A stretch of 59,764 nt of DNA, counting the filler. It is 6 parts of 6 records of this genome, joined end to end, with 100 filler letters (N's around TTAATTAATTAA, not from the genome) between each part and the next. Parts side by side here need not be neighbours in the genome. Positions count along the whole stretch, not along the records: positions 1 to 21,061 come from DRR723986_14452; 5 more parts are not named here. The stretch is one strand, 5' to 3'. Positions within the stretch are counted from its first letter, which is position 1. Each line of letters opens with the position of its first letter. Positions 9,947-33,209 of the stretch are shown in pieces. Below the pieces are notes generated by a model, which worked only from the letters and a program-made list of their open reading frames with translations, was not told where the DNA came from and did no database searches. The position numbers and the translations under genes are program-made.

Positions 9947-12900
9947 TCATGGCGTCAGAACCAGCGATTGGTGCACAACACCTTCTGCGCTGACCAGGCG
10001 GCAGATATAGTGCCCGGCAGCCAGTTGACCGGCTTCAAAGTCGAGCGAATGAGTGCCCGGAGTGACGTACTGATTCAGGAGCAGTGCCACTGAGCGGCCC
10101 TGTAAGTCTCGAATCTCAAGTCGTACCTTCCCAGCTATCGGAATGTGGTAAGTGATACGCGTTTGCTCAGCAACAGGATTGGGTTCAATCATCAACTGGA
10201 CGGCGGATTTTTGATTTTCCGGAGTTAATGTCTGCGTCGGAAGTCCGGGATGGCCGTCTTTGGCTGCGGCCTGCTCCTGGCAGATGTAGTAGGTCCCTGC
10301 TCCACTCTCTTTTACTACGGTGATAGCCGTTTGTTCTTCGGCCTCAAAACGAAGCGGGGTGTAATTACTGGCTTTCAGATTCGGGATTTCCGTCTCCGTA
10401 GTAATGTCTTCGTCATCACAAACGCTGCCGTCGCAGCGGGTTTTAACATCCCAAAGGTTGCCTTTGATGGTATGCGGATCAAAACTACATGTGCTGCCAA
10501 CGAAGTAGTACCCACCATCATCTACCAGCGCGACGGACTCAAAGTGATCTTCCTCGCCCTCGGTACCCGGTCCGCCGGTCGGTACATCCGGTGCAGCGTT
10601 GGACCACTCCAGGCGGCCACAATCGTCGATTTTAAGCATGTAACCTTGTTTGCCCTCCGTCGCTGTTTCTGTCCAGCCACCGATAACGTAACCGCCATTG
10701 GACGCACCGGGTGTTGCTTTGATGGACATAGCCCGGTCGTCAGAGCTGCCGGTCACTGTGTAACGCCGCGACCATTGCAGGTCACCGTCGGACTGCAGTT
10801 TAACAACCAGGGCTTCGTTGCCGCTGCCGCGATTTTGATATCCGCTCAGAATGTAGGAACCATCACCATTCTGTTGGATGCTGTATGCACGCTCGTCATC
10901 GGAAGTTCCGATTCGTTTACCCCAGTCGAGGCTCCCGTCGCTGTCGAGTTTAAGCACACAAATTTCTTCGCCACCATTGCCGCCGCCGGTGGTATAGCCG
11001 GCTACGATATAGCCGCCGTCCTGCGTCTGCTGTACAGACTGTGCGTAGTCATCGTAACTGCTGCCGTATATATACCCCCAACGCGTAGCTGAGCTGGGAG
11101 TGATATCGCCCGCATTGTCAGTTTTAACCACATAAAAATTGTAGCCGCCAGGGAAACCTGGGTCGCTGTCAAATGCACTTTTGCTATAACCGGCCAGAAC
11201 ATAACCGCCGTCCGATGTTAAACCCAATGAACGCCCATGATCGTGACTTACGTTGTCGTTCGTTAACAGGCCGTAGCTGCGCCCCCACAGAACTCCACCG
11301 GCATTATCAACTTTAACAAGCATCATGTTAAATTCACTGGTGACAGACGAACCAAAACTGTGATCGACGTCTCCGGCAAAGGCGTACCCCGCCGTTCCCC
11401 CAATTAAGGCCTGCACTGAATAACCATAGGTATACATGTCCACAGGTTTATAGTGATAGCCCCAGTGGAAAGCATTCGAGCCCATATTGTCGGTCTTGAT
11501 TAACATCGCCAGACTGCCGGTCTGCCCTTTAAGATCAAAACCTGTAATAATAAATCCACCGTCACTGGTCTGCATGCCTTCCTGACCGCGCTCACGCTCA
11601 AAGCGCGCACGCGTAACCTGAAAGGTCGGTTGTGTGGAAGGATCACATTCCGGGGATTCACAAAATTCACTGTCTTCGGTGTTAATCGGCAGCGGACTCA
11701 GTACGTGGTTGGCTTGCATCAGGTGGTCCTGCTCCGTCAATAACACCCCGGAAACCGTCTTGGGGTTAATTTCTTCAAAGGGAACATCCAGCCCACACTT
11801 TCCGCAGTCAACTGCACCGCTGACTAAAAACATATCGTTGTCACCGGGACCAAAACTGGACGTCATTCCGGCGGCCGCCCACGAATTGTGGTTGTCAAAC
11901 AGGCGTGCGGAATACGCCCATTCGCCCTGACCGCCGCCGTAGAGTTGCCCCCACATCAGGCTGCCATTGGCGTCAATTCGCAGAACACTCAAGTCAAAAT
12001 TCGATAGCTGTGCCGAAGCACCGCCCAGCAGATAACCACCGGAGTTTAACTCGCGAATTGAAAAACCCCAATCTGTAGAGTTCGCGCCCACACGGCTGTA
12101 CAGGCGTGACCAGGTGCCACTGCCAAAGGTCTGGCCCCACTGATCAGTTTTGATCACATAAATTCTGCTGCCGCTGGGGCGTGTGCTGATTCCAGCAATT
12201 ATCAGGCCTCCGTCAGAAGTCTCACGGACGTCGTACCCCATATCATCTGTCGCCCCCGGATCAGGTAAAATCCGACTCCAGCTGTACTGCCCGTTGGCAT
12301 CAAACTTTGCCAAAAACGTTCGGAAATTGGAAGCTCCCGGTACCGTGCACGGATTTTCATTTGCGCCAAACAGAAAAGACGTTTTACGGTGCCCGACCGT
12401 AATAAAACCACCGTCGCTGGTCTGGTGAACTGAATTCCCCAGAGTATTGCGAAAATGCGGCATTAAGAACTGATATCCCGGCGGATAGTCATTTGTGGAG
12501 GCCCAGGAAAGCAAGTTGCCCGTGGCATCTATGCGCAGCAGAAATAGATCGCTGCGGTGGTAGGATACAACACTTGGCACCTGCGGAAAATAATCACACA
12601 CAACGGTATCACCATTGGCATAACCAGTAATCGCAAAACTGCCGTCAGCACAGGTTCGAACCGAATATCCTTCATCATCGTAACGCCGCCCGTCATTAAA
12701 CCACGGGCCCTGATAAAAATTCATCCAGACCGTGCCGCCATTCAGATCAAGTCGCATCACCATGATATCCAGGTCGCCCTGGCCAAGTTGGCTAATAAAA
12801 CCGGTAACAATATAACCATCGTGATTTCCCTGAGCATCATAAGTCAGGTCCACATCGCGAAAGCCGGAAGAGTCGTCCGCCGGCGTAACGCGAAAGAACT

Positions 12901-13189
12901 GCCGTGACCAAACTTCCGCTCCAAACTGATCGGTTTTAACAAGATATGGCACGGCCCACCCAAAAGACGTTAAGTCCGTAGTTCCGGCCAAAATGAACCC
13001 ACCGTCCGGGGTCGGTTCCATGCCGTAGGCATAATCGTTAACCATTGGCGTGGCGTTACTGTAGGTGTGCACCATCTGTGCCGTTACAGGTGCATGTGTT
13101 AACATTCCCATTGCAAGGACCAGCATTACTAGAACTTGCAGATATCTTAAGCGCAGTGTATCCGGTATGGATTTTGAAAGTTGTAGCAT
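9947..13189 (-). CDS. Large T9SS cargo protein with two beta-propeller modules
   Basis: Many QTxDGGYI/LxAG and VKTDxxGxxxW repeats; C-terminal EPNPVAEQTRITY...LAAGHYICRL; ATG 13189 follows GGAG. Confidence 0.85.
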   Translation of the reverse strand: MLQLSKSIPDTLRLRYLQVLVMLVLAMGMLTHAPVTAQMVHTYSNATPMVNDYAYGMEPTPDGGFILAGTTDLTSFGWAVPYLVKTDQFGAEVWSRQFFRVTPADDSSGFRDVDLTYDAQGNHDGYIVTGFISQLGQGDLDIMVMRLDLNGGTVWMNFYQGPWFNDGRRYDDEGYSVRTCADGSFAITGYANGDTVVCDYFPQVPSVVSYHRSDLFLLRIDATGNLLSWASTNDYPPGYQFLMPHFRNTLGNSVHQTSDGGFITVGHRKTSFLFGANENPCTVPGASNFRTFLAKFDANGQYSWSRILPDPGATDDMGYDVRETSDGGLIIAGISTRPSGSRIYVIKTDQWGQTFGSGTWSRLYSRVGANSTDWGFSIRELNSGGYLLGGASAQLSNFDLSVLRIDANGSLMWGQLYGGGQGEWAYSARLFDNHNSWAAAGMTSSFGPGDNDMFLVSGAVDCGKCGLDVPFEEINPKTVSGVLLTEQDHLMQANHVLSPLPINTEDSEFCESPECDPSTQPTFQVTRARFERERGQEGMQTSDGGFIITGFDLKGQTGSLAMLIKTDNMGSNAFHWGYHYKPVDMYTYGYSVQALIGGTAGYAFAGDVDHSFGSSVTSEFNMMLVKVDNAGGVLWGRSYGLLTNDNVSHDHGRSLGLTSDGGYVLAGYSKSAFDSDPGFPGGYNFYVVKTDNAGDITPSSATRWGYIYGSSYDDYAQSVQQTQDGGYIVAGYTTGGGNGGEEICVLKLDSDGSLDWGKRIGTSDDERAYSIQQNGDGSYILSGYQNRGSGNEALVVKLQSDGDLQWSRRYTVTGSSDDRAMSIKATPGASNGGYVIGGWTETATEGKQGYMLKIDDCGRLEWSNAAPDVPTGGPGTEGEEDHFESVALVDDGGYYFVGSTCSFDPHTIKGNLWDVKTRCDGSVCDDEDITTETEIPNLKASNYTPLRFEAEEQTAITVVKESGAGTYYICQEQAAAKDGHPGLPTQTLTPENQKSAVQLMIEPNPVAEQTRITYHIPIAGKVRLEIRDLQGRSVALLLNQYVTPGTHSLDFEAGQLAAGHYICRLVSAEGVVHQSLVLTP

Positions 13190-13228
13190 TTCTTCTCCCA
13201 AATTAAACATCAATAATGGTCCGGTATT

Positions 13229-13585: not shown

Positions 13586-14263
13586 TCAGGGTTGAGTTTG
13601 GTAGAACTGGAGATGCGAAACTACAACGCCCTTTGCCGGCGCCTTATGCAGTTCGAATTTGCGCCGAATAGCACAACAATGTTGTTCAATTGTTCGCGGT
13701 GAAAGCGACAGGATTGTGGCAATCGTCTTTTTGTCGTGTCCCTGAATTTGTAAAACTCGAACCCGCAGCTCACTAAGAGAAAGCTGGGCCTCCACTTCGT
13801 GCGCCAAAACAGGATTTTGCGGCACATCCGACGGTAGCGGCAAGGCATAAAACATTTCTGAGAAATTGTGCAGACGGTGGCTGCGGATTTCCTGTAACAA
13901 CTTACTCAGAAGTCCGGCGCGGTTTCTTTTGTGTTTAAGAATTGCCCTTAAGCGCTCAACAACATGTTTTAGAAACTCATTTTCAAACAAATGTGACAAG
14001 GCGCCATTAATATGCTGCCTGTAAACAAGTTCAAACTCGCGGCGCATTTCTACACGCAGGTGTTCGGACAGTTCACGTTCCAACAGCCGCCCTTCTTCTC
14101 TCATTTTTGCCTGGTAACTCTTCAACAAGTGGCGGTAGTTGTGAGCGTGAATTTGCGCACGAACCCGATTGGCCTGTTTAAGTTTTTCAAGTGCTGCAGC
14201 TGGATCCCCCTGCTCTGCCAAGCGCCTCGCAGCGTCTTTTAACTCTTGAAAGTGATTCTCCAC
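13586..14263 (-). CDS. LuxR-type HTH protein (coiled coil + HTH)
   Basis: LSLSELRVRVLQIQGHDKKTIATILSLSPRTIEQHCCAIRRKF. Confidence 0.75.
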   Translation of the reverse strand: MENHFQELKDAARRLAEQGDPAAALEKLKQANRVRAQIHAHNYRHLLKSYQAKMREEGRLLERELSEHLRVEMRREFELVYRQHINGALSHLFENEFLKHVVERLRAILKHKRNRAGLLSKLLQEIRSHRLHNFSEMFYALPLPSDVPQNPVLAHEVEAQLSLSELRVRVLQIQGHDKKTIATILSLSPRTIEQHCCAIRRKFELHKAPAKGVVVSHLQFYQTQP

Positions 14264-14676: not shown

Positions 14677-17121
14677 TCAGTGCACCACCGTAAAGTTAAC
14701 CGTACGCGTTTGTTTGCCGGACTGTGCCCGCAAAATATACGCGCCGGCCGGCCATAAACTTGTATCGTGACGCCGCTCAATTACATCAGTTCCATTGGCG
14801 ACGAGCTGTTCATCAAGGAACTTTTTGCCAAAGCTATTGGTAGCTGTTAAGTGCGTAGTCTGTTGACTGCTGCTGGGCTGAAGGCGCACGGTGATAAATT
14901 CATCGGCTGGATTGGGAGCCAGCTGCAGCGCCAGTAAAGTCCGGAAAACGATGCCGTAGTTAAGGCAGTAGGCGGCATTGCTGTACGTGCCACTTTTGTA
15001 GCGCGCAGTCGGCAGGCAGCCGCGGGCATCATCGGCCTGGTTAAACTCACGAAGTTCGATCTGGCTCTGTGCTTGCGGCGCCATAAATGCGAGGAATTCG
15101 AGTTCGGTCACCTGCTGCGGGCTTTCTGTTACAGTTAATCCTTCAATTTCGATTTCTGTTAGACGCCGGCCATTAACATTTGAGGACTGAATGATTTCAC
15201 CGCCGGCGAGTTCAACAAGTCCAAGCAGGTCACGTGAATATTCAACTGTTAAACGGAATGCTGCAATTTCGAGCGGCAGCTCGGCGCCGGAAACTGCAAC
15301 TATGAGCGGCACAATTGCACTGCCATTCTCGTTTGCAAGACTAGCCGGCAGACTGAATTGCAAGTCAATATTTCCTAACTGTGTGACATCAACCTTAAAT
15401 TCAGCCTGTGCCGGACAGGCGTCACCGGCAGTGCGCACCTGTATTTGAGTATCGTCCAATGGAGAGATGCGCTGGCGCAGAGCGGTGGGATCATCGAATA
15501 ATTCGGCGGGTTCCCAGTTAACATTTTCGGCACCTTCTACCCAGACTTCCAGTTCGTCACCGGCACAGATTGTCGTATCGGCATTAACGCGCAGGACGGC
15601 GGGCTCAAGGACTTTAATGTCAAACTCACGTGTGACCGCACATGAATTTCTCTCGGCTGTGAGGCGCACAAGGGTGGATTCAAGCAGGCTGATATTTTGC
15701 TCAGCAAGCGTGTTATCGTTAAACAGTTCGGCAGGCTCCCACAGATACGTTGCGGCACCCGTAGCGCTGAGGCGCACCGTTTCCCCGGCGCAGATTTCCC
15801 TTGCGGAGATCGTAGTTTCAAATGCAAAACCGGCGGCAGTCCCGTCACCAAAAATATAGTCCATAAAATTTGGCAGGCCGAAGCTTGTGCGCGGATTAAA
15901 GAAACTGCCGAAAGATAGAATTCTGCGTTCGATATTAACGTCCGCACCAAAGGAGTTGGGATTAACAATTCGTGAGAGACGCGGACGCAACTGGGCAGTA
16001 ATGAGGAGATACATGGCGCCGTCCGGAGCAAGCTGTAATGCACCAATTGCATCACCCGATATTGGCTCGTCATGATCAAAGCGGCTGCGATTAATTGCGT
16101 CCAGGTTAAAGGTGCTGAGATCAAACTGTATTAAACCGGATTCGGTGCCATAGGCATACAGACTGGAGTTGTTGGCCGCAAATGAGGCAGAGTAGAATCC
16201 TTGTGCATTGTTTGAACGACTGACGGAAATATCGGGACTTAAAGGCTCACTGATTTCGCGCGTGGCCGGATCAAACTCAAATATCATCAACGAACTGCGG
16301 GCATCATTGTATTCGGCTTCAACGATGCGCTGTCCGTCCGGCGAGAATTTCAATTGCCCCTGGCGATGTGTGACACCGCGATTTCCAAAGGAAGAAACTT
16401 CCGGATCTTCACTTACGATCCCATCAACACCGAGGCGCCAGAGATATAGTCGGCTTGTAGCGCCCAGCGCAGATGAAACGATCACAAATTCATCGGCGCA
16501 GGCATTGTACGTTCCGGTGACTTTCTCGGCCAGGCTAATATCGGGACGCAGAACACGCTGCTCAATGACGTCGCCCAGGCCACCGCGTGCGCTAAGTGAC
16601 ACGACCTGGTAGGACATGCTGCTGTAGGCCAGCGTATGGAACTGTGAGAGGTTCTCGCTCAGGAATGAAGATACGTTGCCGGGATTAAAGATATAGTAGA
16701 TGCCGGACCGTCCGGGCTGCGGAACTATCAGGGCCGACTGACTTGTGGAATACGAAGGCTTTATGGTGCTAGTGACGACGTTCACGGCACTGCCGGGCAT
16801 GAGATTGTTCTGACGGTCCCAGACCTGCATGCCATCGGTGTAAAACAGGAGTGCGCCGCTTTGCGGGTCACTATAGGCGGCACCACCTTCCAGAGTTTGC
16901 ATGCTGCTGGTCCCGGCGCGGTTCAGTGCGCCATTGCCAAAATTCAGGACAAATTCATCGCCAAAATACCAGTTTTCGGCTTCGCGGGACTGCGAGTTCA
17001 GCATGTCGGGACAGCAGAGACCAATCAGCAAAGCTATGGTCAGAAAGCGGCAGCAAAGCTGCTGCAGCGGCTTGTTATCTATATTCAGTTGGCGCTTGGA
17101 GATGTATTGGGCACGATACAT
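14677..17121 (-). CDS. T9SS cargo protein (N-terminal beta-propeller, Ig-like repeats, cohesin-like region, CTD)
   Basis: NWYFG, LLFYTDG, KFSPDG, LQLAPDG, GLPNF motifs; ICAGE/YLWEP Ig-like repeats; APNPA...PAGAYIL C-terminus. Confidence 0.85.
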   Translation of the reverse strand: MYRAQYISKRQLNIDNKPLQQLCCRFLTIALLIGLCCPDMLNSQSREAENWYFGDEFVLNFGNGALNRAGTSSMQTLEGGAAYSDPQSGALLFYTDGMQVWDRQNNLMPGSAVNVVTSTIKPSYSTSQSALIVPQPGRSGIYYIFNPGNVSSFLSENLSQFHTLAYSSMSYQVVSLSARGGLGDVIEQRVLRPDISLAEKVTGTYNACADEFVIVSSALGATSRLYLWRLGVDGIVSEDPEVSSFGNRGVTHRQGQLKFSPDGQRIVEAEYNDARSSLMIFEFDPATREISEPLSPDISVSRSNNAQGFYSASFAANNSSLYAYGTESGLIQFDLSTFNLDAINRSRFDHDEPISGDAIGALQLAPDGAMYLLITAQLRPRLSRIVNPNSFGADVNIERRILSFGSFFNPRTSFGLPNFMDYIFGDGTAAGFAFETTISAREICAGETVRLSATGAATYLWEPAELFNDNTLAEQNISLLESTLVRLTAERNSCAVTREFDIKVLEPAVLRVNADTTICAGDELEVWVEGAENVNWEPAELFDDPTALRQRISPLDDTQIQVRTAGDACPAQAEFKVDVTQLGNIDLQFSLPASLANENGSAIVPLIVAVSGAELPLEIAAFRLTVEYSRDLLGLVELAGGEIIQSSNVNGRRLTEIEIEGLTVTESPQQVTELEFLAFMAPQAQSQIELREFNQADDARGCLPTARYKSGTYSNAAYCLNYGIVFRTLLALQLAPNPADEFITVRLQPSSSQQTTHLTATNSFGKKFLDEQLVANGTDVIERRHDTSLWPAGAYILRAQSGKQTRTVNFTVVH

Positions 17122-17875: not shown

Positions 17876-18613
17876 ATGAAGAAGTTTCTATTACCCCTGG
17901 CATTTGTTGCGTTTATAGGCTTTAGCGCCTGTAGCGACGAATCCAATGATCCCGGCAATTTGTTAAGTGACCCCGGAGATGTAAGCAGTGAGTCATCCGC
18001 TTATGTACTGGTTGGGCCACGCCTACTTGGCGAAGAAGTAGGCCAGTTGCGCTGGATTGAGGGCAATCTTGAGGCGCCAAACGGCAGTAATGTCAAGGGT
18101 ACGGGCGACAAAGTTCAGCGCGATGTTGAATTCCATGAGATCATCCCGGAATATTCCAAGTACTCGTACATGTGCCACGACGGCCGTGAAACGAGCTACT
18201 CGGAACCCGGCTCCGATGAAAAGTGGTGGCACATAGCCGGTGGTGCATGGGCTTCCTACTATTCAACAAACCCGAACGGCTGCCCAGACGGCGGCGAGCC
18301 TTTCCACGAGTTCATTGGACCGAAGCCGACGTCGATGCACGACATGTGGCACATCCCCAGTGGCAGAATGGCTTCGTATTACTACGACCCAATGGAAGGC
18401 TCTGTTTGGTGCCACGACCCAAGTGGCGAATACCCGTCTTCATATGTTCCAATGGATGCTATTCACATAACCGACCCGACAATCACAACTGTTACAGTTG
18501 ATGGTACAGACATTGATATTGACGAGACTACCCCGACCTCATACGTATGGGGTGGCAAGCCGATTGACCCTGAGCTGCTGCCGAAAGACTTCCTTGACGG
18601 AGTCAGCAATTAA
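17876..18613 (+). CDS. Lipoprotein with repeated H-x(5-9)-S-Y motifs (unknown function)
   Basis: MKK + hydrophobic stretch + FSAC lipobox; GGAGG SD; 8 His confined to aa 87-197 and six SY dipeptides. Confidence 0.8.
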   Translation: MKKFLLPLAFVAFIGFSACSDESNDPGNLLSDPGDVSSESSAYVLVGPRLLGEEVGQLRWIEGNLEAPNGSNVKGTGDKVQRDVEFHEIIPEYSKYSYMCHDGRETSYSEPGSDEKWWHIAGGAWASYYSTNPNGCPDGGEPFHEFIGPKPTSMHDMWHIPSGRMASYYYDPMEGSVWCHDPSGEYPSSYVPMDAIHITDPTITTVTVDGTDIDIDETTPTSYVWGGKPIDPELLPKDFLDGVSN

Positions 18614-18665: not shown

Positions 18666-18698
18666 ACTGCCGGGAAACGCGCAGGCGTTCCCGGCGGT
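18666..18698 (+). terminator. GC-rich hairpin after lipoprotein gene (no U-tract)
   Basis: ACTGCCGGGAAACGC-GCAG-GCGTTCCCGGCGGT. Confidence 0.5.
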
Positions 18699-18796: not shown

Positions 18797-19894
18797 ATGG
18801 CAGTCCTAGAAAAGTTATTCCCCTACGCCAGTCTGGTGTTTTTAATAGCCGCAGCAGGTGCGGTTTTTGTGACGATTCAGTCCGAAAGTAAACCACATCC
18901 GGAGATAAACGCGGGGCTGATTACCAATCACTCGTTTATTAACGGTTTATATACAAGCATGGACATTTATGATGAGGAGGAAGTTTTTGCGTATATCTTC
19001 AGAAACCTGGATGACGAAGTCACAATTTTCCCTTCGGAAAATTACTTCTACTTTCGATTCAGTGCGCAGGGCCAGACGCTGGGCGGCTCACTTTCCTTAA
19101 AAGTAGGCAAACGCGATGAGGGCATCATCAGCCTGGGCTATTCGATTAAACCGGAGTCACGCGATCGCCAAAAGTTCTTCAGTATCAAAGGTGGTGCGCG
19201 TGACTTTAATGCCGATGACGGCGTCCTGGTTAAAAAACTCGACGACTTTTTGTATGGCGTCACCTACAAAGACCGGACGGTGACGTTCAGCTTGTATGAG
19301 CAGGGCCTGCAAGCGCCGCAGAAGGCCGCACTCATGCCGGATGAGGAATATGTGTGTACTTCGTTTGATGAATCGGGACTGCAGTTTTATCTGATATTTA
19401 ACAAAAGTATCGATCGCATGTACTGGATTCTGAATGAAGATGCGTATGTGCCGGAAGAGTTCACACGCCACAGCCACAACGTCTTTTTTGGCGACCGCAC
19501 GGAATTTGCCTGGTATGCAGATTCAGTGCACAACCGCAAAGTTCTGATTGGCGTCAATGGCGAGAATGTGCTGCACAACAACTGGTACGATGGCCCCTTT
19601 GATCAATTGGCCGATAATTATGTCAATATCGGAGAGTTAAACATGCGGCCCTATATTGAGGCGCAGTATCCGATGCACCTTGACAATGTTGATGAATTCG
19701 GGCGCATGTTAAACCGCGAAGACGCGCGCGTACCGATTGCACCCTACCGCGTCTACTGGGATACACGCGAGTTTAACAATATCGACAGCCTGGTAGGCGC
19801 TGTGGAAGATAAGTCACAGCTTCTGCAGCAGCTAACCGCGCAGATTTACTATGTGCCGCGTGACTATTACAAAAATGTGCTTAGAAAAAAGTAG
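18797..19894 (+). CDS. Membrane-anchored hypothetical protein, paralog A
   Basis: N-terminal hydrophobic anchor; motifs FPSENYFYFRF, FDESGL, NNWYDGPFDQLADNY shared with next gene. Confidence 0.85.
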   Translation: MAVLEKLFPYASLVFLIAAAGAVFVTIQSESKPHPEINAGLITNHSFINGLYTSMDIYDEEEVFAYIFRNLDDEVTIFPSENYFYFRFSAQGQTLGGSLSLKVGKRDEGIISLGYSIKPESRDRQKFFSIKGGARDFNADDGVLVKKLDDFLYGVTYKDRTVTFSLYEQGLQAPQKAALMPDEEYVCTSFDESGLQFYLIFNKSIDRMYWILNEDAYVPEEFTRHSHNVFFGDRTEFAWYADSVHNRKVLIGVNGENVLHNNWYDGPFDQLADNYVNIGELNMRPYIEAQYPMHLDNVDEFGRMLNREDARVPIAPYRVYWDTREFNNIDSLVGAVEDKSQLLQQLTAQIYYVPRDYYKNVLRKK

Positions 19895-21061: not shown

Positions 21062-21161
21062 NNNNNNNNNNNNNNNNNNNNNNNNNNNNNNNNNNNNNNN
21101 NNNNNTTAATTAATTAANNNNNNNNNNNNNNNNNNNNNNNNNNNNNNNNNNNNNNNNNNNN
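21062..21161. other. Artificial contig spacer
   Basis: N-run + TTAATTAATTAA + N-run, 100 nt. Confidence 0.98.
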
Positions 21162-22229
21162 CCCTTCGACCTGCCGGACCTGATGAAGCGCTCGGCCCGC
21201 GCGCTGGAACAAAAGCGCCGCGCGCCTGCAACGCGCGCCCCCGGCGTTTCTGGCAGCGAGTCTCCTCAGGACGATCTGCCGCTGGTCGGGCGCACGGCCT
21301 CGATGCAGGCGCTCTATCGCTTGGTGGCGCGGGTGATGAATGCGGATCTGCCGGTTCTGGTGACAGGCGAAAGCGGGACGGGAAAGAGCCTGATTGCCAG
21401 GGCGATTCACGATTTTTCCGACCGGCGCACGCTGCCTTTCGTGACGGTCACGGCGTCGGATCTCGATGCTGCGGACGGACCGCAGCAGGTTCTGAGCCGG
21501 GTGCGCGACGGATCGCTTCTGTTTGATGAGATCGGGGATTTCGACGATACCGCCCAAGGCAAGATCGTTCGGATGCTGGACGGGTTCGGCGACGGCGCGC
21601 CACGGGTCATGGCCACAAGTCAGAAGGCGCTGACCGAGCGGATGGAGTCGGGCGTGTTCCGTCAGGATCTGTTCTACCGCCTGTCCGGCGTCACCATCGC
21701 GGTTCCGGCCTTGCGCGAACGGGTGGATGACATTCCGCTGCTGGCCGAACATTTTCTGGCCCGCTCCGAACGCGACGGCCTGCCGGTGCGGCGGCTGTCG
21801 CCCGGGGCCATGGAAATGATCCGCGCCTATAGCTGGCCGGGCAACGTGCGGCAGTTGGAAAACACCGTGCGGCGCCTGACGGTGACAAGCCCGGTCGAGG
21901 TTATCGGCAAGCCCGAGGTCGAGGCCGTGCTTGGCAACCAGCCCGAAATCGAGCCGTTGATCGGATCAAGCGACGGTGAAAAGCTGTCGGCATCGGTCGC
22001 CAAGCATCTCAAGCGCTATTTCGACCTGCATGGCGGGGTCTTGCCGCCACCGGGTCTCTACACGCGCATCCTGCGCGAGGTGGAACTGCCTTTGATCGAG
22101 ATCGCCCTGGATGCGACGGGGGGCAATCAGGCGAAATGCGCCGATCTGCTTGGCATCAACCGCAATACGCTGCGCAAGAAGATCACGGATCTGGATATTC
22201 GCGTGACTCGCCGCCGGAAGTTGATGTAA
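21162..22229 (+). CDS. ntrC: Nitrogen regulation response regulator NtrC (5' truncated)
   Basis: End of receiver domain (PFD), GESGTGKS Walker [41 protein letters not shown]; upstream of ntrY. Confidence 0.92.
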
Positions 22230-22328
22230 AACCGCAACAGTAGCGTTGCCCGTATGTGACGGCGGGAATTGGGCTACCATATTTTGCGGTCGGGCAGGGT
22301 TTCTGCCCAACATACGAGGCTTTTTCGG

Positions 22329-24584
22329 GTGAGTACCCCTGCGCAGAGTGATGCAGATTCCCCACTGATGCGGTTGCTGGCCCTGCGCCAGCAGCGCCGC
22401 CTGCGCACGATCGGCACTTTTGCGCTGGTTTTGCTGGGGCCTGTTCTGGCGGTCGCGACGTTTCTGGTGATGGGGCCTCTGGGGCAGGCGGTAGCCTCAC
22501 CCTCGCTGCGGCTGGTTCTGCTGGCGGACCTTGTCTACACGCTTGTCGTGGCGGCGCTGGTCTTCTACCGGGTGGCCAAGATGATTGCCGCGCGGCGTGC
22601 GCAATCCGCAGGTTCCCGGCTGCATTTGCGCCTGACCGGGGTGTTTGTGCTGCTGGCGCTGCTGCCCACTGTTTCGGTCGCGGTCTTTGCAACGATCACC
22701 GTGAATATGGGGCTGGAGGGATGGTTTTCCGACCGGGTGCGCAATGCACTTGGCCATTCGGTGGAAGCCGCCCATGCCTATCAGCAGGAACATCGGGACG
22801 ACTTGACCGAAGACGCGATTGCACTGGCGGCCTTTCTCAACCTCAATCGCCGTGCCACCCCTTTTCTTGCGGATGGCGATCTGCGTCAGCTTCTCAGTCA
22901 GGGGCAGGGGGCCATTCAACGCGGCCTGAGAGAGGCCTTCGTGATCGACGGTGGGGGCGAGATCCGGGCCCGAGGTGAACGCAGCTATCTGTTTGACTAC
23001 GAACGCCCGTCTGACGATGACCTGCTGCTGGCTGCCGAAGGCGATGTGGTCGTGATCGAGGACCGGGAAACCAATGAATTCCGCGCGCTTGTGCGGCTGA
23101 CAGCCTTTGCGGACCGTTACCTGTATGTCAGCCGCGAGGTGGATGGACAGATTATCGCGCTGCTCGATGAAACCCAGGCCACTGTCGGGCTGTATCGCCA
23201 GTTGGAAAACGAACGCGGACAGTTTCTGTTCCAGTTCGGGCTGATCTATCTGGGCTTCGCGGTCATCCTGATCCTTGCGGCAATCTGGTTGGGGCTGTGG
23301 TTCGCCGAACGACTGTCACGCCCGGTCGGGCGCTTGGCGGGGGCCGCTCAGCGCGTCGGGATCGGGGATCTGGACGTGCGGGTGCAGGAGGAACAGGGCG
23401 ACGACGAGATTGCCATGTTGGGCCGCCTGTTCAACCAGATGACCCGGCAATTGAAAGGCCAGCGCGATGCGCTGATCGAACAGCATGACCGCACCGAGGA
23501 ACGCCGCCGCCAGTTTGACTCGGTTCTCAGTTCCGTCACCTCGGGCGTGATCGGCCTTGATGCGGATGGGCGCATTGATTTCATGAACCGCTCAGCGATC
23601 CGTCTGCTCGATCTGGTTGAAGCACGCGATCACGGGATCAGCGTGGCCGTGGCCGTGCCGGAATACGCCGCCTTGTTCGACCGGCTGCGTGATCGGGCCG
23701 CGCCGGTGGTGCAGGAAGAAATCAAGGTCACCCGCCGGGGCAAGCTGGAAAGCCTGCTGGTGCGCGTGTCTGTTCGGCAGGACGAAGATGGCGATCTGGA
23801 AGGCTACGTGGTGGCCTTCGACGATGTGACCGACCTTGTCAGCGCACAACGTATGGCGGCCTGGGGCGACGTGGCCCGTCGGATCGCACATGAAATCAAG
23901 AACCCCCTGACCCCCATTCAGCTAAGTGCGGAACGGGTCAGGCGCAAATTCAGCAAGCTGCTGGATGAGGCCGATGCAGACCAGTTGGGCCAGTTGACCG
24001 ATGTCATCGTGCGCCAGACCAACGATCTGCGGCGGATCGTGGACGAGTTTTCCAAATTCGCGCGGATGCCGGAACCCGAGCGCCAGCCCGAGGATGTCTC
24101 GCGGCTTTTGTCCGATGCCGTCCTTCTGCAAAAGTCGGGCCAGCCGGGAACAAGGTTCGTCAGTGACATTCCCGCAGGCCCGGTTCTGGCCGATCTGGAT
24201 GCGACCATGATCGGCCAGGCGCTGACAAATCTGATCAAGAATGGCGGGGAAGCCATTGAAACTTTGCAGGAAAAAGACCCGCCAGAGGGGCATTCCCCGG
24301 AAATTCGCGTGGTCATGACCCTGCATCCCGAAACGGTTGAAATCACCATCAGCGACAATGGCATCGGTCTGCCACCCGACCGGGCGCGGCTGTTTGAACC
24401 TTATGTGACGACCCGAGAGAAAGGCACCGGTCTGGGCCTGCCGATCGTCAAGAAGATCATCGAAGAACATGGCGGGTCGCTGGACCTGCTGGATGCGGAG
24501 CCCTTCTCGCCGGGTGCGCATCCGGGGGCGATGGCACGCATCCTGCTGCCACGTCTGTCTGAGGACGAAGGAGAAGCGATATGA
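22329..24584 (+). CDS. ntrY: Sensor histidine kinase NtrY
   Basis: TM segments, HAMP, PAS, AAWGDVARRIAHEIKNPLTPIQLSAER, GTGLGL; start approximate. Confidence 0.93.
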   Translation: MSTPAQSDADSPLMRLLALRQQRRLRTIGTFALVLLGPVLAVATFLVMGPLGQAVASPSLRLVLLADLVYTLVVAALVFYRVAKMIAARRAQSAGSRLHLRLTGVFVLLALLPTVSVAVFATITVNMGLEGWFSDRVRNALGHSVEAAHAYQQEHRDDLTEDAIALAAFLNLNRRATPFLADGDLRQLLSQGQGAIQRGLREAFVIDGGGEIRARGERSYLFDYERPSDDDLLLAAEGDVVVIEDRETNEFRALVRLTAFADRYLYVSREVDGQIIALLDETQATVGLYRQLENERGQFLFQFGLIYLGFAVILILAAIWLGLWFAERLSRPVGRLAGAAQRVGIGDLDVRVQEEQGDDEIAMLGRLFNQMTRQLKGQRDALIEQHDRTEERRRQFDSVLSSVTSGVIGLDADGRIDFMNRSAIRLLDLVEARDHGISVAVAVPEYAALFDRLRDRAAPVVQEEIKVTRRGKLESLLVRVSVRQDEDGDLEGYVVAFDDVTDLVSAQRMAAWGDVARRIAHEIKNPLTPIQLSAERVRRKFSKLLDEADADQLGQLTDVIVRQTNDLRRIVDEFSKFARMPEPERQPEDVSRLLSDAVLLQKSGQPGTRFVSDIPAGPVLADLDATMIGQALTNLIKNGGEAIETLQEKDPPEGHSPEIRVVMTLHPETVEITISDNGIGLPPDRARLFEPYVTTREKGTGLGLPIVKKIIEEHGGSLDLLDAEPFSPGAHPGAMARILLPRLSEDEGEAI

Positions 24585-25984
24585 GCGATATTCTGGTTGT
24601 CGACGACGAACGCGATATCCGAGAGCTGATTTGTGACATCCTTCAGGATGAAGGGTTCACCACCCGCATGGCATCGAATTCCGATGAATGCATGGCCGAG
24701 CTGAACAAGGAGCCGCCGGGGATGATGATCCTCGATATCTGGCTCAAGGACAGCAACATGGATGGCATCGACATCCTGTCGCACGTCAAGCGGGATAACC
24801 CCGATGTGCCGGTGGTGATCATCTCGGGTCATGGCAACATTGAAATCGCCGTGGCGGCGATCAAGCAGGGCGCGTTCGACTTCATCGAGAAACCGTTCAA
24901 TATCGACCAGCTTCTGGTGGTGATCCGCCGCGCGATGGAGGTCAGCCGCCTGCGCCGCGAAAACTCTGCCCTGCGTCGTCAGGATGGCCGGTCAGACGAG
25001 ATGATCGGTGCGGGTGCAGCGTTCAAGATGCTGAAATCACAGCTCGACAAGGTCACCAAGTCAAATGGCCGGGTGATGCTGACCGGCGGACCGGGATCGG
25101 GCAAGGAAATCTCTGCCCGGTATATCCACGCCCATTCGGACCGCTCCGGCGCGCCCTTCGTGACGGTCAGTTCGGCCTCGGTGTCGCCCGACCACATGGA
25201 AGAGGTGCTGTTTGGCCGCGAAAGCCCCGAACGCGGCGTCGAACAGGGCCTGTTGGAACAGGCCCATGGCGGCGTGGTGTTCTTTGACGAGATTGCGGAT
25301 ATGCCATCCGGCACGCAGTCCAAGATCCTCAGGGTGCTTGTGGACCAGAGCTTTACCCGCGTTGGCGGCACGTCCAAGGTGCGCGTCGATCTCCGGGTCA
25401 TTTCCTCGACCACTCGTGACCTAAAGGCCGAAATCGCGTCGGGGACTTTCCGCGAAGAGCTGTATCACCGTCTGAACGTGGTGCCGATCGACGTGCCGAG
25501 CCTTGAGGAGCGCCGCGAAGACATCCCCGACCTGGCGCGCCACTTCATCGAACGGTTCAACCGCGAACAGGGCCTGCCGCTGCGCGACCTTGGGCAGGAC
25601 GCCGAGGCGATGCTGCAAACCATGCGCTGGCCCGGCAATATCCGTGAATTGCGCAACGTGATCGAACGGGTGCTGATCCTTGGCGATGGCACCGGCCCGA
25701 TCGAGGCGCGCGATCTGCCGGGGCAGGGGGCCACCGCCAGTGAAGATGAACAGATTGCCCTGTCACCGGGCCTGACCACTTTGCCATTGCGAGAGGCGCG
25801 GGAACTGTTTGAGCGGCACTACCTGATGGCGCAGATCAACCGCTTCGGGGGCAATATCAGCCGAACCGCCAGTTTCGTCGGCATGGAACGCAGCGCCCTG
25901 CATCGCAAGCTGAAATCGCTTGGCGTTGTCACCACCAACCGCGCGGGCGCGCGGGTGGCGCAAGTGGGTGACGGCGAGGACTGA
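24581..25984 (+). CDS. ntrX: Response regulator NtrX
   Basis: LDIWL receiver, ISGHGNIEIAV, AAA+ domain, GNISRTASFVGMERSALHRKLK. Confidence 0.95.
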   Translation: MSDILVVDDERDIRELICDILQDEGFTTRMASNSDECMAELNKEPPGMMILDIWLKDSNMDGIDILSHVKRDNPDVPVVIISGHGNIEIAVAAIKQGAFDFIEKPFNIDQLLVVIRRAMEVSRLRRENSALRRQDGRSDEMIGAGAAFKMLKSQLDKVTKSNGRVMLTGGPGSGKEISARYIHAHSDRSGAPFVTVSSASVSPDHMEEVLFGRESPERGVEQGLLEQAHGGVVFFDEIADMPSGTQSKILRVLVDQSFTRVGGTSKVRVDLRVISSTTRDLKAEIASGTFREELYHRLNVVPIDVPSLEERREDIPDLARHFIERFNREQGLPLRDLGQDAEAMLQTMRWPGNIRELRNVIERVLILGDGTGPIEARDLPGQGATASEDEQIALSPGLTTLPLREARELFERHYLMAQINRFGGNISRTASFVGMERSALHRKLKSLGVVTTNRAGARVAQVGDGED

Positions 25985-25988
25985 GCCT

Positions 25989-26438
25989 TCAGGGGTTCAC
26001 AATCAAGGCGCCGTTGTCGGTGCGGATGATGCAAGTCGACTCGGATAGCGGGGCCATGATCGTCGATGCTGCCACGCGCCGGTTTGCCGGGCAGATCGGC
26101 AGGCTCACCTCTGTATATCCGCGTTCTGCCATGCAGACGGCGATGGCGTTTCCGCGCCTGGATTGAGCCAGATCCACGGTGTAGGCCTCTCCTCCCTGCC
26201 AGTATCCTTCGGTCGTCACGCAGACGCCTTCCGCATCGCAGGTTTCTGTTGCAGGAACGTAGACCCTCGGGCGATAGCGGGTGAGCCGCTGTTCAGGGTG
26301 ATCGTAGTAGGCGGCGGATTCGCAATTGGCGTAATCGAGAGTGCGCTGAGCGACCGTGCGCCCCTCGGCGTAGTATTCGGAATATTGGCAGGCCGTCAGG
26401 GGCAGCAGTGCAAGGGCGATTGGAAGAAATCTGTTCAT
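25989..26438 (-). CDS. Cys-rich hypothetical lipoprotein
   Basis: MNRFLPIALALLPLTAC lipobox; CMAERGY motif. Confidence 0.7.
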   Translation of the reverse strand: MNRFLPIALALLPLTACQYSEYYAEGRTVAQRTLDYANCESAAYYDHPEQRLTRYRPRVYVPATETCDAEGVCVTTEGYWQGGEAYTVDLAQSRRGNAIAVCMAERGYTEVSLPICPANRRVAASTIMAPLSESTCIIRTDNGALIVNP

Positions 26439-26599
26439 GGCTGATCCGTTGAAACTTTCAAGTAATTCCAAAATCATAGCTTAGGGGTTCGTGATCTCCA
26501 AGCGCATCGTGACAGGGGCGATGATTGACGGCTGTGCTCGTCTCTGCCATGCAGAAGGCCCGGCCCGGTGGCCGGTCAGACGAGGACGGGCAAGGGCCG

Positions 26600-27976
26600 A
26601 TGAAGATCATCATTTGCGGGGCAGGTCAGGTCGGCTGGCAGATCGCCCGTCACCTTTCCGGCGAAAACAACGACGTCACCGTGGTGGACAACAACCCAGA
26701 ACTGGTGCGCCGCGCAACCGATACGCTTGACGTGCAGGGGATCACCGGCTTTGCGTCCTATCCCGATGTGCTGGACAAGGCGGGCGCGCGCGATGCCGAC
26801 ATGATTATCGCCGCCACCTTCTCGGACGAGGTCAACATGGTCACCTGCCAGGTGGCCCATTCGATCTTTGCCGTGCCGCGCAAGATTGCCCGGCTGCGCG
26901 CCCAAAGCTATCTGACGGCGGTTTATTCCGACCTTTACCGGCGTGAACACTTGCCGGTCGATGTGGTGATCAGCCCGGAACGAGAGGTTGCAAAGGCGGC
27001 GCTGCGCAGGCTGGCCTCGCCTTCGACCTTCGACACCGAGTATTTCCTGGGCGGTGAGGCGCTGTTGATGGGGATTCGGCTGGATGAAGATAGCCCGGTG
27101 CTGAACACTCCGCTCAAGCAATTGTCCGAGCTTTTCTCGACCCTTCGCGCCATCGTGGTCGGGGTGCGCCGGGAGGGCACGTTGTTTGCCCCCGAACCGG
27201 GCGATCAGTTGTTTGCGGGCGACGAGATTTACGTCTTTACCCATGACAGTGACGCGGCCCGCACGTTGGAAATATTCGGCAAACCCGCCCCCCGGCAGGA
27301 ACGGGTGGTCATCATCGGCGGCGGCAATGTCGGGCTGGCCGTCGCGCAGGAGCTGGAAAAGTCCTCCACCCGGATCCGCGCCCGTGTGATCGAGAAAAGC
27401 CGCGACCGCGCCGAACGCGCGGCCGACGCGCTGAGCCGAACCATCGTTTTGCATGGCGACGGGCTCGATATCGAGATCCTGCGCGAAGCCGGGGTTGAAC
27501 GGGCGGACGCGGTTTTGTGCGTGTCGGATGACGACAAGACCAATCTGCTGGCCTCGGTGCGGGCGAAATCGGCAGGGGCCGGCATGGCCATCGCCCTGGT
27601 CAACGATCCGACGATGGTACAGATGATGGAACCCCTGGGCATCGACGCCTATGTGAATCCGCGCGCCACCACGGTCAGTTCCATCCTGCGCCACATCCGG
27701 CAAGGTCGGGTGCGCGGGGTCTATTCCATCGGTGACGCGGAGGCCGAAGTGATCGAGGCGCAGGTTCTGTCCACATCGCCGATTGCCGGGCGCGCGGTGC
27801 GCGACATCGACTTTCCCGAAGGCGCGTTGATCGGCGCAATCCGCAAACGCGACAAGGTGATCCGCCCGACGGGATCAACCCGGATCGAGGAGGGTGATAC
27901 CGTCGCCATCTTCGCTCTGTCCAAGGATGTGCCCGCGGTTGAGGCCCTGTTGCGCGTCTCGGTCGATTTCTTCTGA
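26600..27976 (+). CDS. trkA: Trk potassium uptake NAD-binding subunit
   Basis: MKIIICGAGQVG, second IIGGGNVG RCK domain; 458 aa from ATG 26600. Confidence 0.95.
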   Translation: MKIIICGAGQVGWQIARHLSGENNDVTVVDNNPELVRRATDTLDVQGITGFASYPDVLDKAGARDADMIIAATFSDEVNMVTCQVAHSIFAVPRKIARLRAQSYLTAVYSDLYRREHLPVDVVISPEREVAKAALRRLASPSTFDTEYFLGGEALLMGIRLDEDSPVLNTPLKQLSELFSTLRAIVVGVRREGTLFAPEPGDQLFAGDEIYVFTHDSDAARTLEIFGKPAPRQERVVIIGGGNVGLAVAQELEKSSTRIRARVIEKSRDRAERAADALSRTIVLHGDGLDIEILREAGVERADAVLCVSDDDKTNLLASVRAKSAGAGMAIALVNDPTMVQMMEPLGIDAYVNPRATTVSSILRHIRQGRVRGVYSIGDAEAEVIEAQVLSTSPIAGRAVRDIDFPEGALIGAIRKRDKVIRPTGSTRIEEGDTVAIFALSKDVPAVEALLRVSVDFF

Positions 27977-27979
27977 CCG

Positions 27980-29494
27980 ATGGGCCAGTACCTCGCCAGA
28001 TTGCCGCTGCTGGTCCTACTGGTGGGAATCTGTGCGCTGGCGATGCTGGTGCCCGCCGCAGTCGCAATGATCGAGGAGGAATTCCGCGTCGGGCGTAGTT
28101 TCTTCTATTCGGCGCTGTTGTTCCTGATCCTGACGCTGGTGCTTGGCTTTGCCACGCAGGGGTTCAAGCCAGCCACCTCGGCGCGCAGCCATTTGGCGGG
28201 GCTGATCGTGGCCTATCTGCTGTTGCCCGCTATCATGGCGGTCCCGCTGGCTGATGCGATCGGCAACACGCGGTTCCTGAACGCGTATTTCGAAATGGTG
28301 TCCTGCCTGACCACCACCGGAGCCACGCTGTTCGACCCGGCGCGGCTTGGCGATGGCGAACATCTCTGGCGGGCGCTTGTCGGCTGGATGGGCGGGCTTC
28401 TTGTCTGGGTCACGGCCATGGCCGTAATGGCGCCGCTGTCGCTTGGCGGATTCGAAGTGTCATCGGAAGCGGTCGATCGCCGTGTCGTATCATCGGGGGC
28501 GCAGATGCAGGCCGCAGCACCCGGTCTTCGATTGCGCCGCGCGGTTGTGTTTCTGGCCCCGACATATGCCGGCCTGACGGGTGTCCTTTGGCTGTTGCAG
28601 ATCCTGGCGGGCGAAAGCGATCTGACCGCTCTGGCCCATGCGATGGCGGTGATGTCGACCTCTGGCATTTCGCCCGAGGGCTCTCTGAACGCCTCTGCGG
28701 GCGGATTCCTGTCGGAACTCACGATCTTTTTCTTCTTCCTGTTTGCCCTGACGCGACACAGCTTTTCCGACCGCGTTACGACCAACACCCCGCGCATTCT
28801 GTTTCAAGACCGGGAATTGCGGCTGGCCGTCTACGTGGTGCTGGCGCTGACAGCTTTGTTTTTTCTACGCCACTGGCTTGGCGCACTGGAGGTCGCGTCC
28901 TCGGGCACGGGCCGGTCGGCGCTGGCCGCGCTTTGGGGCAGCCTGTTTACCATCACCTCTTTCGTGACCACGACCGGCTTCGTGTCGGATTACTGGGCCG
29001 AGGCGCGCGGTTGGTCCGGTTTGCCGACGCCGGGGTTGCTGCTGGTGGGGCTGGCCCTGATGGGCGGCGGGGCCGCTACCACGGCAGGCGGCATCAAGCT
29101 GATCCGGGTCTATGCGCTGTACAAGCATGGCACACGGGAACTCGGCAAGCTGACCCACCCCCATTCCGTTGCCGCAGGCGGGCGGATGGGGCGGCGCATC
29201 CGGCGCGAAGGGGCCTATATCGCCTGGGTGTTCTTCATGCTGTTCATTCTGTCGACCGCGGCGATCATGCTGGCGCTGTCGATGACCGGGCAAGGCTTCG
29301 AGGACTCCTTCGTTCTGGCCGCTGCTGCCCTGTCGACAACCGGTCCGCTGGCGGCCTATGGGGGCGAACACCCGATCATATACGCGGCGCTAAGCGATCC
29401 GGCGAAACTGGTCCTGATCGGGGCAATGATCCTGGGCCGTCTGGAAACGCTTGCGTTGATTGCTTTGTTCAACCCGGGTTTCTGGCGAATCTAG
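27980..29494 (+). CDS. trkH: Trk potassium uptake membrane subunit
   Basis: LTTTGAT, TTTGF, TAGGIK, MILGRLE motifs; multi-TM. Confidence 0.9.
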   Translation: MGQYLARLPLLVLLVGICALAMLVPAAVAMIEEEFRVGRSFFYSALLFLILTLVLGFATQGFKPATSARSHLAGLIVAYLLLPAIMAVPLADAIGNTRFLNAYFEMVSCLTTTGATLFDPARLGDGEHLWRALVGWMGGLLVWVTAMAVMAPLSLGGFEVSSEAVDRRVVSSGAQMQAAAPGLRLRRAVVFLAPTYAGLTGVLWLLQILAGESDLTALAHAMAVMSTSGISPEGSLNASAGGFLSELTIFFFFLFALTRHSFSDRVTTNTPRILFQDRELRLAVYVVLALTALFFLRHWLGALEVASSGTGRSALAALWGSLFTITSFVTTTGFVSDYWAEARGWSGLPTPGLLLVGLALMGGGAATTAGGIKLIRVYALYKHGTRELGKLTHPHSVAAGGRMGRRIRREGAYIAWVFFMLFILSTAAIMLALSMTGQGFEDSFVLAAAALSTTGPLAAYGGEHPIIYAALSDPAKLVLIGAMILGRLETLALIALFNPGFWRI

Positions 29495-29639
29495 CCAGAT
29501 TTTCTGCCTTTGCAGCATTCCGGGACCAAGTTGCGGGAATCGGGGTGGAAATCCGCGAAAAACATGCACATACTCGCATTTAGGTTTTCATCGCGTTCCA
29601 CAATAAGGGACGGTAACAAAGAATAAGGCAAGGTTCCCG

Positions 29640-30388: not shown

Positions 30389-30488
30389 NNNNNNNNNNNN
30401 NNNNNNNNNNNNNNNNNNNNNNNNNNNNNNNNTTAATTAATTAANNNNNNNNNNNNNNNNNNNNNNNNNNNNNNNNNNNNNNNNNNNN
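30389..30488. other. Artificial contig spacer
   Basis: N-run + TTAATTAATTAA + N-run. Confidence 0.98.
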
Positions 30489-33164: not shown

Positions 33165-33209
33165 GCGGGGTAATCGCGCCGGTGATCCGGCCTCGACCAC
33201 TCACGCAAT

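Follow-up and report, generated by a model that had tools for sequence, protein, structure and literature searches.

Several described systems bear comparison with the gene reported here. The propeller hub of nitrous-oxide reductase holds a seven-histidine CuZ site, and type-3 copper centres contain three plus three histidines. WD40 repeats carry an Asp-His-Ser/Thr-Trp hydrogen-bond tetrad (excerpts of PMC5587647), histidine and tyrosine are cross-linked in biarylitides, and BURP cyclases are described as self-processing proteins with repeated cores (excerpts of PMC8672867). For the surface export of lipoproteins in Bacteroidota, the motifs described are CS(D/E)2, the lipoprotein export signal (LES) defined for SusG of Bacteroides, or K-(D/E)2 / Q-A-(D/E)2 (excerpts of PMC6222051 and PMC5080379). 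Here we describe P0001, a histidine-repeat lipoprotein encoded in a window of 59,764 nucleotides (the whole stretch of DNA that was analysed), together with dn1 and dn2, the two genes that follow it. P0001 is the first member of a family of small lipoproteins, hitherto undescribed, in Kapaibacteria-like Bacteroidota bearing a type IX secretion system (T9SS), and the three genes make up an undescribed envelope module. The protein is tentatively read as a ligand-binding lipoprotein of the cell surface.

A core of repeated histidine-bearing units

The open reading frame (ORF) of P0001 encodes 245 amino acids (aa). A first-pass annotation, made from the sequence of the window, had described positions 18131-18544 (aa 86-223) as a lipoprotein built from repeated units in which an aromatic residue or cysteine precedes histidine and a Ser-Tyr pair closes the unit. 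A residue check confirmed this arrangement. All eight histidines (87, 101, 119, 144, 155, 159, 180 and 197) lie within aa 87-197, with none in aa 1-86; the residues preceding them are, in order, F, C, W, F, M, W, C and I, and the spacings between them are 14, 18, 25, 11, 4, 21 and 17. The six quoted units (FHEIIPEYSKYSY, CHDGRETSY, WHIAGGAWASY(Y), FHEFIGPKPTSM, WHIPSGRMASY(Y) and CHDPSGEYPSSY) were all verified, as were IH197 and the terminal PTSY223. The pattern [FWC]H.{5,10}S[YM] matches P0001 six times; when the mature sequence was shuffled 20,000 times, the mean was 0.027 matches and six were never attained (0/20,000). This pattern was composed post hoc, after inspection of P0001, and the internal duplication and the conservation among orthologues carry more weight. 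The repeat of histidine-bearing units is real and exists at the protein level only, as had been proposed: Tandem Repeats Finder returned no rows for the gene DNA, and the only direct repeats in it are two imperfect, two-copy ones (36 nt at 72% and 22 nt at 73%). The earlier remark that CxxCH, the criterion for a c-type cytochrome, is absent extends to the whole family (0/13 members).

Each unit follows the same pattern: a hydrophobic residue and histidine, a short turn that often contains glycine, then Ser/Thr-x-Tyr/Trp. Profile-profile comparison with hhalign matched aa 84-131 to aa 141-192 at a probability of 95% (E 2.5e-8), which indicates that the core is a duplicated three-unit module of the form F-H / x-H / W-x-H. 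The ~140-aa aromatic-rich core is an internal duplication, made of two three-unit modules and a seventh unit. The seventh unit, H197 ... Y223, resembles the first unit of a module and contains an insertion of 15-16 aa that is found only in P0001 and its closest relative, P0002.

AlphaFold2 returned a predicted local distance difference test score (pLDDT) of 33.9 from the single sequence and 43.7 with a seven-row alignment. The low-confidence model is all-beta, with strands that stop at the histidines and resume at Ser-Tyr, i.e. hairpins. A Foldseek search of the better model against PDB gave no matches at E <= 0.001 (template-modelling scores 0.08-0.16), which is uninformative given the poor model. 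A confident known globular fold, named by the first-pass annotation as evidence that would count against its view, was not obtained at these pLDDT values, and no known family was matched.

Conservation within the family

An exhaustive phmmer search of 1.84 billion 50%-identity representatives retrieved six further members at E <= 1e-10. One extra match from the same search, P0008 (E 1.6e-5), is weak and looks unrelated to the family. With a word-indexed profile search added, the family grew to 13 clusters, and every cluster with a source name is called 'hypothetical protein'. Pfam at E <= 10 returned only NMO (2/13 members, E 0.011) and a signal-peptide match (1/13), NCBIfam returned nothing besides the lipoprotein signal, and a profile search of PDB sequences returned no match (E <= 10). 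Known beta-repeat families, including cell-wall and choline-binding repeats, are among those left unmatched by these Pfam, NCBIfam and PDB searches. Moreover, no PADLOC family was matched by the lipoprotein, dn1 or dn2, PHROGs gave a single chance-level match (E 0.047, a tail-fibre assembly family), and the top ESM Atlas score of the lipoprotein was 0.87 (mark 0.9), to unnamed 'hypothetical protein' clusters. The literature searched does not mention the NCBI locus tags of family members, and a search for 'histidine-rich lipoprotein' found only an unrelated mycoplasma review.

Seven related loci (L001-L007) were obtained from one scan of genome_contigs. The low dN/dS between the two closest of them (Table 1) marks the lipoprotein as a real gene. 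When loci are compared with the window's gene, dN is 0.096 in the core (aa 86-196), 0.29 in the linker (aa 20-85) and 0.30 in the tail.

Conservation was counted in a 13-row alignment (A3, numbered after P0001). The residues identical in 13/13 members are C19, D21, N28, L29, L30, P33, H87, P91, H101, Y108, W117, H119, G123, W125, A126, Y129, H144, G148, W158, H159, I160, G163, Y169, P172, W178 and Y223. Five histidines (H87, H101, H119, H144 and H159) are therefore invariant; H180 is kept in 12/13 members and H197 in 10/13, its loss falling in three members that lack the first half of the seventh unit, and H155 is kept in only 2/13. Thus the loss of the motifs among orthologues, which the first-pass annotation had also named as a result that would tell against it, is not what the family displays. 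Cysteine is poorly kept (C100 2/13, C179 3/13, C136 2/13) and the mature protein is free of it in 7/13 members, so histidine, not cysteine, is the constant feature. Position 93 is Tyr in 7/13 and His in 6/13, both of which are able to ligate metal. Acidic residues are partially conserved at E88 (11/13) and D102 (10/13), and a hydrophobic residue is kept two positions before the histidine (W117-x-H119, W178-x-H180, M99-x-H101).

The distance from histidine to the closing anchor is constant among orthologues for units 1, 3, 4 and 5 (13/13) and for unit 2 (11/13), and varies only in units 6 and 7. Loop residues G123, W125, A126, G148 and G163 are invariant across the family. The spacers had been called variable, which holds between the units of one protein but not between orthologues, where units 1-5 are fixed. 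Loops that differ between units yet are fixed across orthologues are the behaviour of a folded domain, not of variable peptide cores.

Lipoprotein signal and linker

P0001 begins with MKK and a hydrophobic stretch leading to F-S-A-C19, and the residue preceding the lipobox cysteine is Ala or Gly in every alignment row. The NCBIfam lipoprotein-signal match (aa 1-24) is weak, with an E of 0.0055, and falls below the cut-off; the invariant Cys19 of the lipobox supports the earlier assignment as a lipoprotein. An N-L-L-x-x-P sequence, invariant in the family, begins nine residues past the lipidated cysteine, and Arg59 (18050-18052) is nearly invariant within an otherwise variable linker; the two may serve in sorting or docking, or as a cleavage site. 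The first-pass annotation had seen a leader-like region here. That reading, as the leader of a ribosomally synthesised and post-translationally modified peptide (RiPP), is ruled against by what was found instead, namely a Sec/signal-peptidase-II lipoprotein signal, N-L-L-x-x-P and a variable linker.

The C-S-D-E of the window protein matches the CS(D/E)2 export motif. Across the family, position +3 of the post-cysteine segment is Asp in 13/13 members, and position +4 is E in 2/13, Q in 7/13 and S in 4/13. The protein resembles LES-bearing surface lipoproteins such as SusG in having Ser-Asp-Glu after the lipobox cysteine, an invariant +3 Asp in the family and a host lineage with T9SS cargo. It is unlike them in that homology to the characterised examples is absent, the locus is not of SusC/SusD type, the +4 residue is acidic in only 2/13 members and surface exposure is a prediction from sequence.

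The downstream hairpin and the dn gene pair

The order lipoprotein, dn1, dn2 is found in all seven related loci as well as in the window. A stem-loop lies 3' of the lipoprotein gene in 8/8 loci (the window and the seven), 42-91 nt into the scanned stretch past the stop. The hairpin has a perfect stem in all eight, and its sequence differs between clades. Out of 25 random control segments per locus, 0, 1, 8, 5, 2, 0, 5 and 0 had an equal or greater hairpin stability. Conservation of a hairpin at this place is suggestive, not proven, and the hairpin may be an attenuator or an mRNA-stabilising element.

The two dn proteins are paralogues. In a tree of 16 dn proteins, made by a quick method with no rows omitted, the first and second genes are split by one branch (Shimodaira-Hasegawa-like approximate likelihood-ratio support 97). 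Their position on opposite sides of a single branch indicates that the duplication is old and that both copies have been retained; on this tree, the duplication is older than the split of these loci. The dn family contains 575 clusters at E <= 0.001, and none of the 120 of these that were listed has a Pfam domain or a name beyond 'hypothetical'. When the window's dn1 and dn2 were aligned with 32 of the 120 listed clusters (34 sequences), 28 positions proved invariant; most are Asp, Glu, Asn or Arg and none is His or Cys, a residue set that looks enzyme-like. A hydrophobicity scan found a single N-terminal hydrophobic segment and none later in 28/34 dn proteins, and a few homologues have a lipobox in place of the N-terminal anchor, which places the dn domain outside the cytoplasm.

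Searches with dn1 gave no match among PDB sequences, no usable match in the ESM Atlas and, by tblastn, no match in 72,556 plasmids. The dn profile reached the N-lobe of a macrolide 2'-phosphotransferase (E 0.84) and cortactin (E 2.4) in PDB, and both were treated as chance because the dn proteins are without the invariant Lys or His of a kinase. A sub-threshold match to DUF7229 covers a 45-aa stretch in 7/34 dn proteins (24.5 bits at best; cut-off 27), and DUF7229 was not mentioned in the literature searched. A prediction of the complex of dn1 (aa 38-365), dn2 (aa 35-353) and the lipoprotein (aa 20-245), made without alignments, scored 0.00 and 0.00, which speaks neither for nor against binding. 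The conserved gene order, the sole basis here, makes it most likely, whichever reading of the histidines holds, that the lipoprotein works with dn1 and dn2.

In five of the seven loci (L003-L007) a gene for a sigma factor resembling the extracytoplasmic function (ECF) type lies upstream of the module; its Sigma70_r4_2 match is firm, that to region 2 weak. In the same five, a Peptidase_S8 + FG-GAP protein of 1461-1536 aa starts 40-284 nt past dn2, and a FlgD-Ig-like match is present at the C-terminus of this subtilase in L003 and L006. L001 and L002, the nearest relatives of the window, have neither gene beside the module. The contig that carries P0001 stops 93 nt past dn2.

Neighbouring genes were scanned as 72 ORFs in the seven loci, i.e. 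71 of 93 greedily chosen ORFs of at least 80 aa and one that was added; the 22 left out were module genes, ORFs overlapping module genes and two small, unconserved intergenic ORFs. No match to P450, YcaO, lanthipeptide-synthetase or BURP families was found in these 72 or in the 13 ORFs of the first contig of the window. The only radical-SAM proteins are of MiaB type (Radical_SAM + TRAM, to which the complete copy in L007 adds UPF0004); they are confined to two loci, L005 and L007, at a distance of more than 3.7 kb upstream.

Possible roles of the histidines

At a probability of roughly 0.35, we favour the reading that P0001 is a probably surface-exposed ligand-binding lipoprotein with two three-histidine sites for a metal or cofactor, because the histidines are invariant, conserved cysteine is absent from the mature protein, Tyr and His replace each other at position 93, the architecture is 3+3 and the location is extracytoplasmic. 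The lipoprotein would be exported by Sec, lipidated and delivered to the outer membrane, where C-S-D-E probably flips the window protein to the cell surface. Its core would fold as an array of beta-hairpins in which His 87/101/119 and 144/159/180, with neighbouring tyrosines, converge into two three-histidine sites that would bind a metal ion or a cofactor with a metal in it. The hairpin past the gene would lead to the lipoprotein being made in excess over dn1 and dn2, and the three proteins may act as one envelope module, which in five loci stands beside the ECF-like sigma gene and the giant S8/FG-GAP subtilase. The number of histidines is that of the CuZ and type-3 copper sites (seven in all, two sets of three), and convergence on metal is conceivable. 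The copper proteins, however, are far larger and have known folds, no sequence or fold similarity to them was detected, and both the metal and the geometry of the lipoprotein are hypothetical.

A number of observations weigh against a metal or cofactor site. The models (pLDDT 33.9 and 43.7) are too poor for geometry, leaving the clustering of the histidines as pure inference. No recurrent metal-transport or metal-regulator family occurs in the 13 window and 72 neighbour ORFs, and a lone Rrf2 regulator lies ~6 kb away in one locus. Few acidic residues besides the partially conserved E88 and D102 are kept as further ligands, and each histidine lies in a predicted strand next to a residue that is hydrophobic or aromatic, as a structural residue would too. 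The full surface-export motif is present in only 2/13 members, and the excess of hairpin stability over the controls is clear in only 3/8 loci taken singly. Furthermore, dn homologues are encoded on at least 17 long contigs (25-409 kb) for whose recorded lengths no contig with a lipoprotein homologue was detected, which suggests, as a weak inference, that the dn pair does not always depend on the lipoprotein. From these longest-contig records, and within the limited sensitivity of the search, the dn pair seems to be the older and wider element and the lipoprotein a lineage-specific partner.

That the histidines are purely structural is nearly as likely, and sequence alone cannot separate this from metal or cofactor binding. 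They would form hydrogen bonds to Ser/Thr and Tyr/Trp of their own or an adjacent unit, as in the WD40 tetrad, within a metal-free scaffold or adaptor whose aromatic surface may contact a glycan, peptidoglycan, or dn1/dn2 and the subtilase. Every unit has the same His ... Ser/Thr-x-Tyr/Trp signature, as a repeat-building network of residues would, and the conserved hydrophobic residue at -2 places the histidine on the core-facing side of a strand; the gene context is without metal-related genes and the low-confidence model is all-beta. WD40 proteins provide a precedent for a stabilising His/Ser-Thr/Trp/Asp network in beta repeats, and, like the lipoprotein, consist of beta-strand repeats with His, Ser/Thr and Trp each at a fixed place in the unit (excerpts of PMC5587647). 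The units of the lipoprotein, however, lie 14-25 residues apart, compared with ~40, and would form seven hairpins instead of seven four-stranded blades, and neither WD40 nor another repeat family was detected by Pfam at E <= 10 in any of the 13 members. In known repeats it is unusual for a structural histidine to be on a par with Trp and Gly in its invariance, as it is here, and the alternation of Tyr and His at position 93 suits ligand chemistry at least equally well.

Two further explanations are much less probable. It is unlikely that the protein is exported as a lipoprotein to serve the co-encoded secreted S8 subtilase (as its pro-protein, substrate, anchor or regulator) and is cut in the linker, e.g. 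near Arg59. Type V pilins, whose lipoprotein precursors are cleaved by a secreted protease, offer a loose analogy. The ~1460-1540-aa subtilase just past dn2 and the sigma gene upstream in 5/7 loci fit this role, as do the position of R59 inside the variable linker in 12/13 members and a hairpin suited to a subunit or substrate made in excess. Both genes, however, are absent beside the module in L001 and L002, the window's own subclade, and since the window contig stops so soon after dn2, its own downstream gene lies beyond the contig end; a pilin or protease-inhibitor match is absent from Pfam and NCBIfam, and the invariant histidines are left unexplained. Far more doubtful is the suggestion, raised in the first-pass annotation, that the units are macrocycle cores, i.e. 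the cores of a ribosomal cross-linked product (His-Tyr, His-Trp or Cys macrocycles), with dn1/dn2 as a new extracytoplasmic maturase. Stem-loops are often found after precursor genes, and one lies 3' of the lipoprotein gene; repeated aromatic-His ... Ser-Tyr units stand within one polypeptide, and dn1/dn2, which have no known function, look enzyme-like with their 28 invariant, mostly acidic or amide residues. The His-Tyr cross-links of P450 biarylitides and the self-processing repeat cores of BURP-domain cyclases, or burpitides (excerpts of PMC8672867), are precedents, and the window protein is like them in having several short aromatic/His units in one product and two 'CH' dipeptides. It is unlike them in lacking the BURP spacing CHX10CHX25-27CHX25-26CH, the N-terminal FF motif, conserved cysteines and a P450 or BURP neighbour, and in having a lipoprotein signal (motifs as in excerpts of PMC8672867); Pfam BURP was not matched at E <= 10 in any of the 13 members.

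Moreover, the cysteine that would be lipidated is invariant, the P450, YcaO, lanthipeptide-synthetase and BURP families are missing from the 13 and 72 ORFs scanned, and the radical-SAM proteins are MiaB-type and distant. A dedicated maturase gene of the kind expected beside a RiPP precursor (radical SAM/SPASM, P450, YcaO or LanB/C/M) was not found in these ORFs. Neither His nor Cys is among the invariant residues of the dn proteins, which leaves them without ligands for a redox metal; loop lengths and residues are fixed among orthologues, and the entire 140-aa core is uniformly constrained. The RiPP pattern of a variable core, a conserved leader and a precursor retained in the cytoplasm is reversed here, the core being the most conserved part (dN 0.096 vs 0.29) and a Sec/lipoprotein signal being present. 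The macrocycle proposal is unsupported, given the export signal, the lack of a maturase among the ORFs scanned, the unconserved cysteines and the fixed loops; the lipoprotein is most probably not a RiPP precursor, and no sign of a modified-peptide precursor was found in it. A more ambitious form of the metal reading, which we consider improbable, would make the core a miniature metallo-domain (a metal cluster, two three-histidine sites, or a His-Tyr cross-linked cofactor made by itself or by dn1/dn2), with dn1/dn2 as a new extracytoplasmic enzyme family that loads, matures or uses the core, the whole being a surface module for redox or metal handling, not seen before, in Kapaibacteria-like Bacteroidota.

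If the histidine triads do bind a metal or cofactor, the core would be a new small extracellular metal-binding fold, and would give a first handle on the dn1/dn2 family, whose 575 clusters have no annotation and no Pfam model. If the histidines are purely structural, P0001 is no more than an ordinary hypothetical lipoprotein whose repeat is tidy. The conserved trio of lipoprotein, dn1 and dn2 forms an envelope module not characterised before; in some loci it is accompanied by an ECF-like sigma factor and a giant secreted subtilase, and its lineage is uncultured and poorly studied. For genome scanning, aromatic-His ... Ser-Tyr repeats need not mean a RiPP, and loop lengths fixed among orthologues together with a lipoprotein signal point to a folded domain.

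Genomic context

The features of the locus are listed in Table 1.

Table 1. Features of P0001, its module and the surrounding genes. Positions are those of the window unless a locus is named.
Feature	Position	Strand	Remarks
P0001, histidine-repeat lipoprotein gene	17876..18613	+	ORF; 13 family clusters; dN/dS 0.062 (L001 vs L002)
Signal peptide and lipobox, aa 1-19, lipidated Cys19	17876..17932	+	Cys19 13/13; NCBIfam lipoprotein-signal match
Post-lipobox conserved segment, aa 20-35	17933..17980	+	C-S-D-E, then invariant N28-L29-L30-x-x-P33; D21, N28, L29, L30, P33 each 13/13
Variable Gly/Ser/Pro-rich linker, aa 36-85	17981..18130	+	gaps in 38/57 columns; length 39-54 aa; R59 12/13
Repeat module 1, aa 86-131, three His-hairpin units (H87, H101, H119)	18131..18268	+	His 13/13; hhalign 95% vs module 2
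Repeat module 2, aa 143-192, three His-hairpin units (H144, H159, H180)	18302..18451	+	H144, H159 13/13; H180 12/13; hhalign
Seventh unit, aa 193-225, H197 ... S222-Y223	18452..18550	+	H197 10/13, Y223 13/13
GC-rich stem-loop between the lipoprotein gene and dn1	18667..18697	+	-29.2 kcal/mol (50-nt frame); T-run absent
dn1, 365 aa, predicted extracytoplasmic, N-terminal hydrophobic anchor	18797..19894	+	next after the lipoprotein gene in 7/7 loci
dn2, 353-aa dn1 paralogue, 41% identity	19907..20968	+	starts 12 nt past dn1 stop
Three large proteins with T9SS C-terminal sorting domains	4796-6643, 9947-13213, 14677-17121		upstream of module
Two GerE/LuxR-type regulators, one with TPR repeats	7952-9817, 13586-14263		upstream of module
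Sigma gene of L003	7034-7630 (L003)		equivalents in L004-L007
S8 subtilase of L003	11240-15823 (L003)		equivalents in L004-L007

The contig that carries the module (1-21061) has ~50% GC and encodes four proteins with T9SS sorting domains, hence a Bacteroidota-like host. None of the T9SS-domain proteins and GerE/LuxR regulators upstream of the module in the window is conserved beside it in the other loci. No 8-10-mer was shared by at least five loci in the 300 nt upstream of the eight genes, a weak test given that the start positions used for L003, L004, L005 and L007 were off, and Rfam gave no matches on the first contig. In L001, a 518-aa ORF directly after dn2 (11090-12643) has an Ala/Arg/Val-rich composition like that of a wrong frame and no Pfam or PDB match, and is probably not a gene.

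The seven loci come from metagenome-assembled genomes (MAGs) of Kapaibacteria or Bacteroidetes and from MAGs labelled Alphaproteobacteria. The MAGs of L001, L005 and L006 are labelled Hyphomicrobiales or Alphaproteobacteria, yet contain the same module as the Kapaibacteria loci. T9SS sorting-domain proteins are present in L005 and in the unlabelled L002, a near-twin of L001. The L001, L005 and L006 contigs are probably mis-binned.

The window is a concatenation of several contigs, with paired N runs flanking a TTAATTAATTAA spacer at each join (21062-21161, 30389-30488, 39590-39689, 45128-45227 and 51122-51221). GC rises from ~0.50 (1-21061) to ~0.62 (22001-38000); a sigma-54 activator and an NtrY-type kinase are encoded on the contig that follows the first. 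The bin is probably a mixture of organisms. The start of the first contig encodes a tyrosine recombinase (Phage_integrase, 7-945) and an RlaP-family nucleotidyltransferase (1049-1855).

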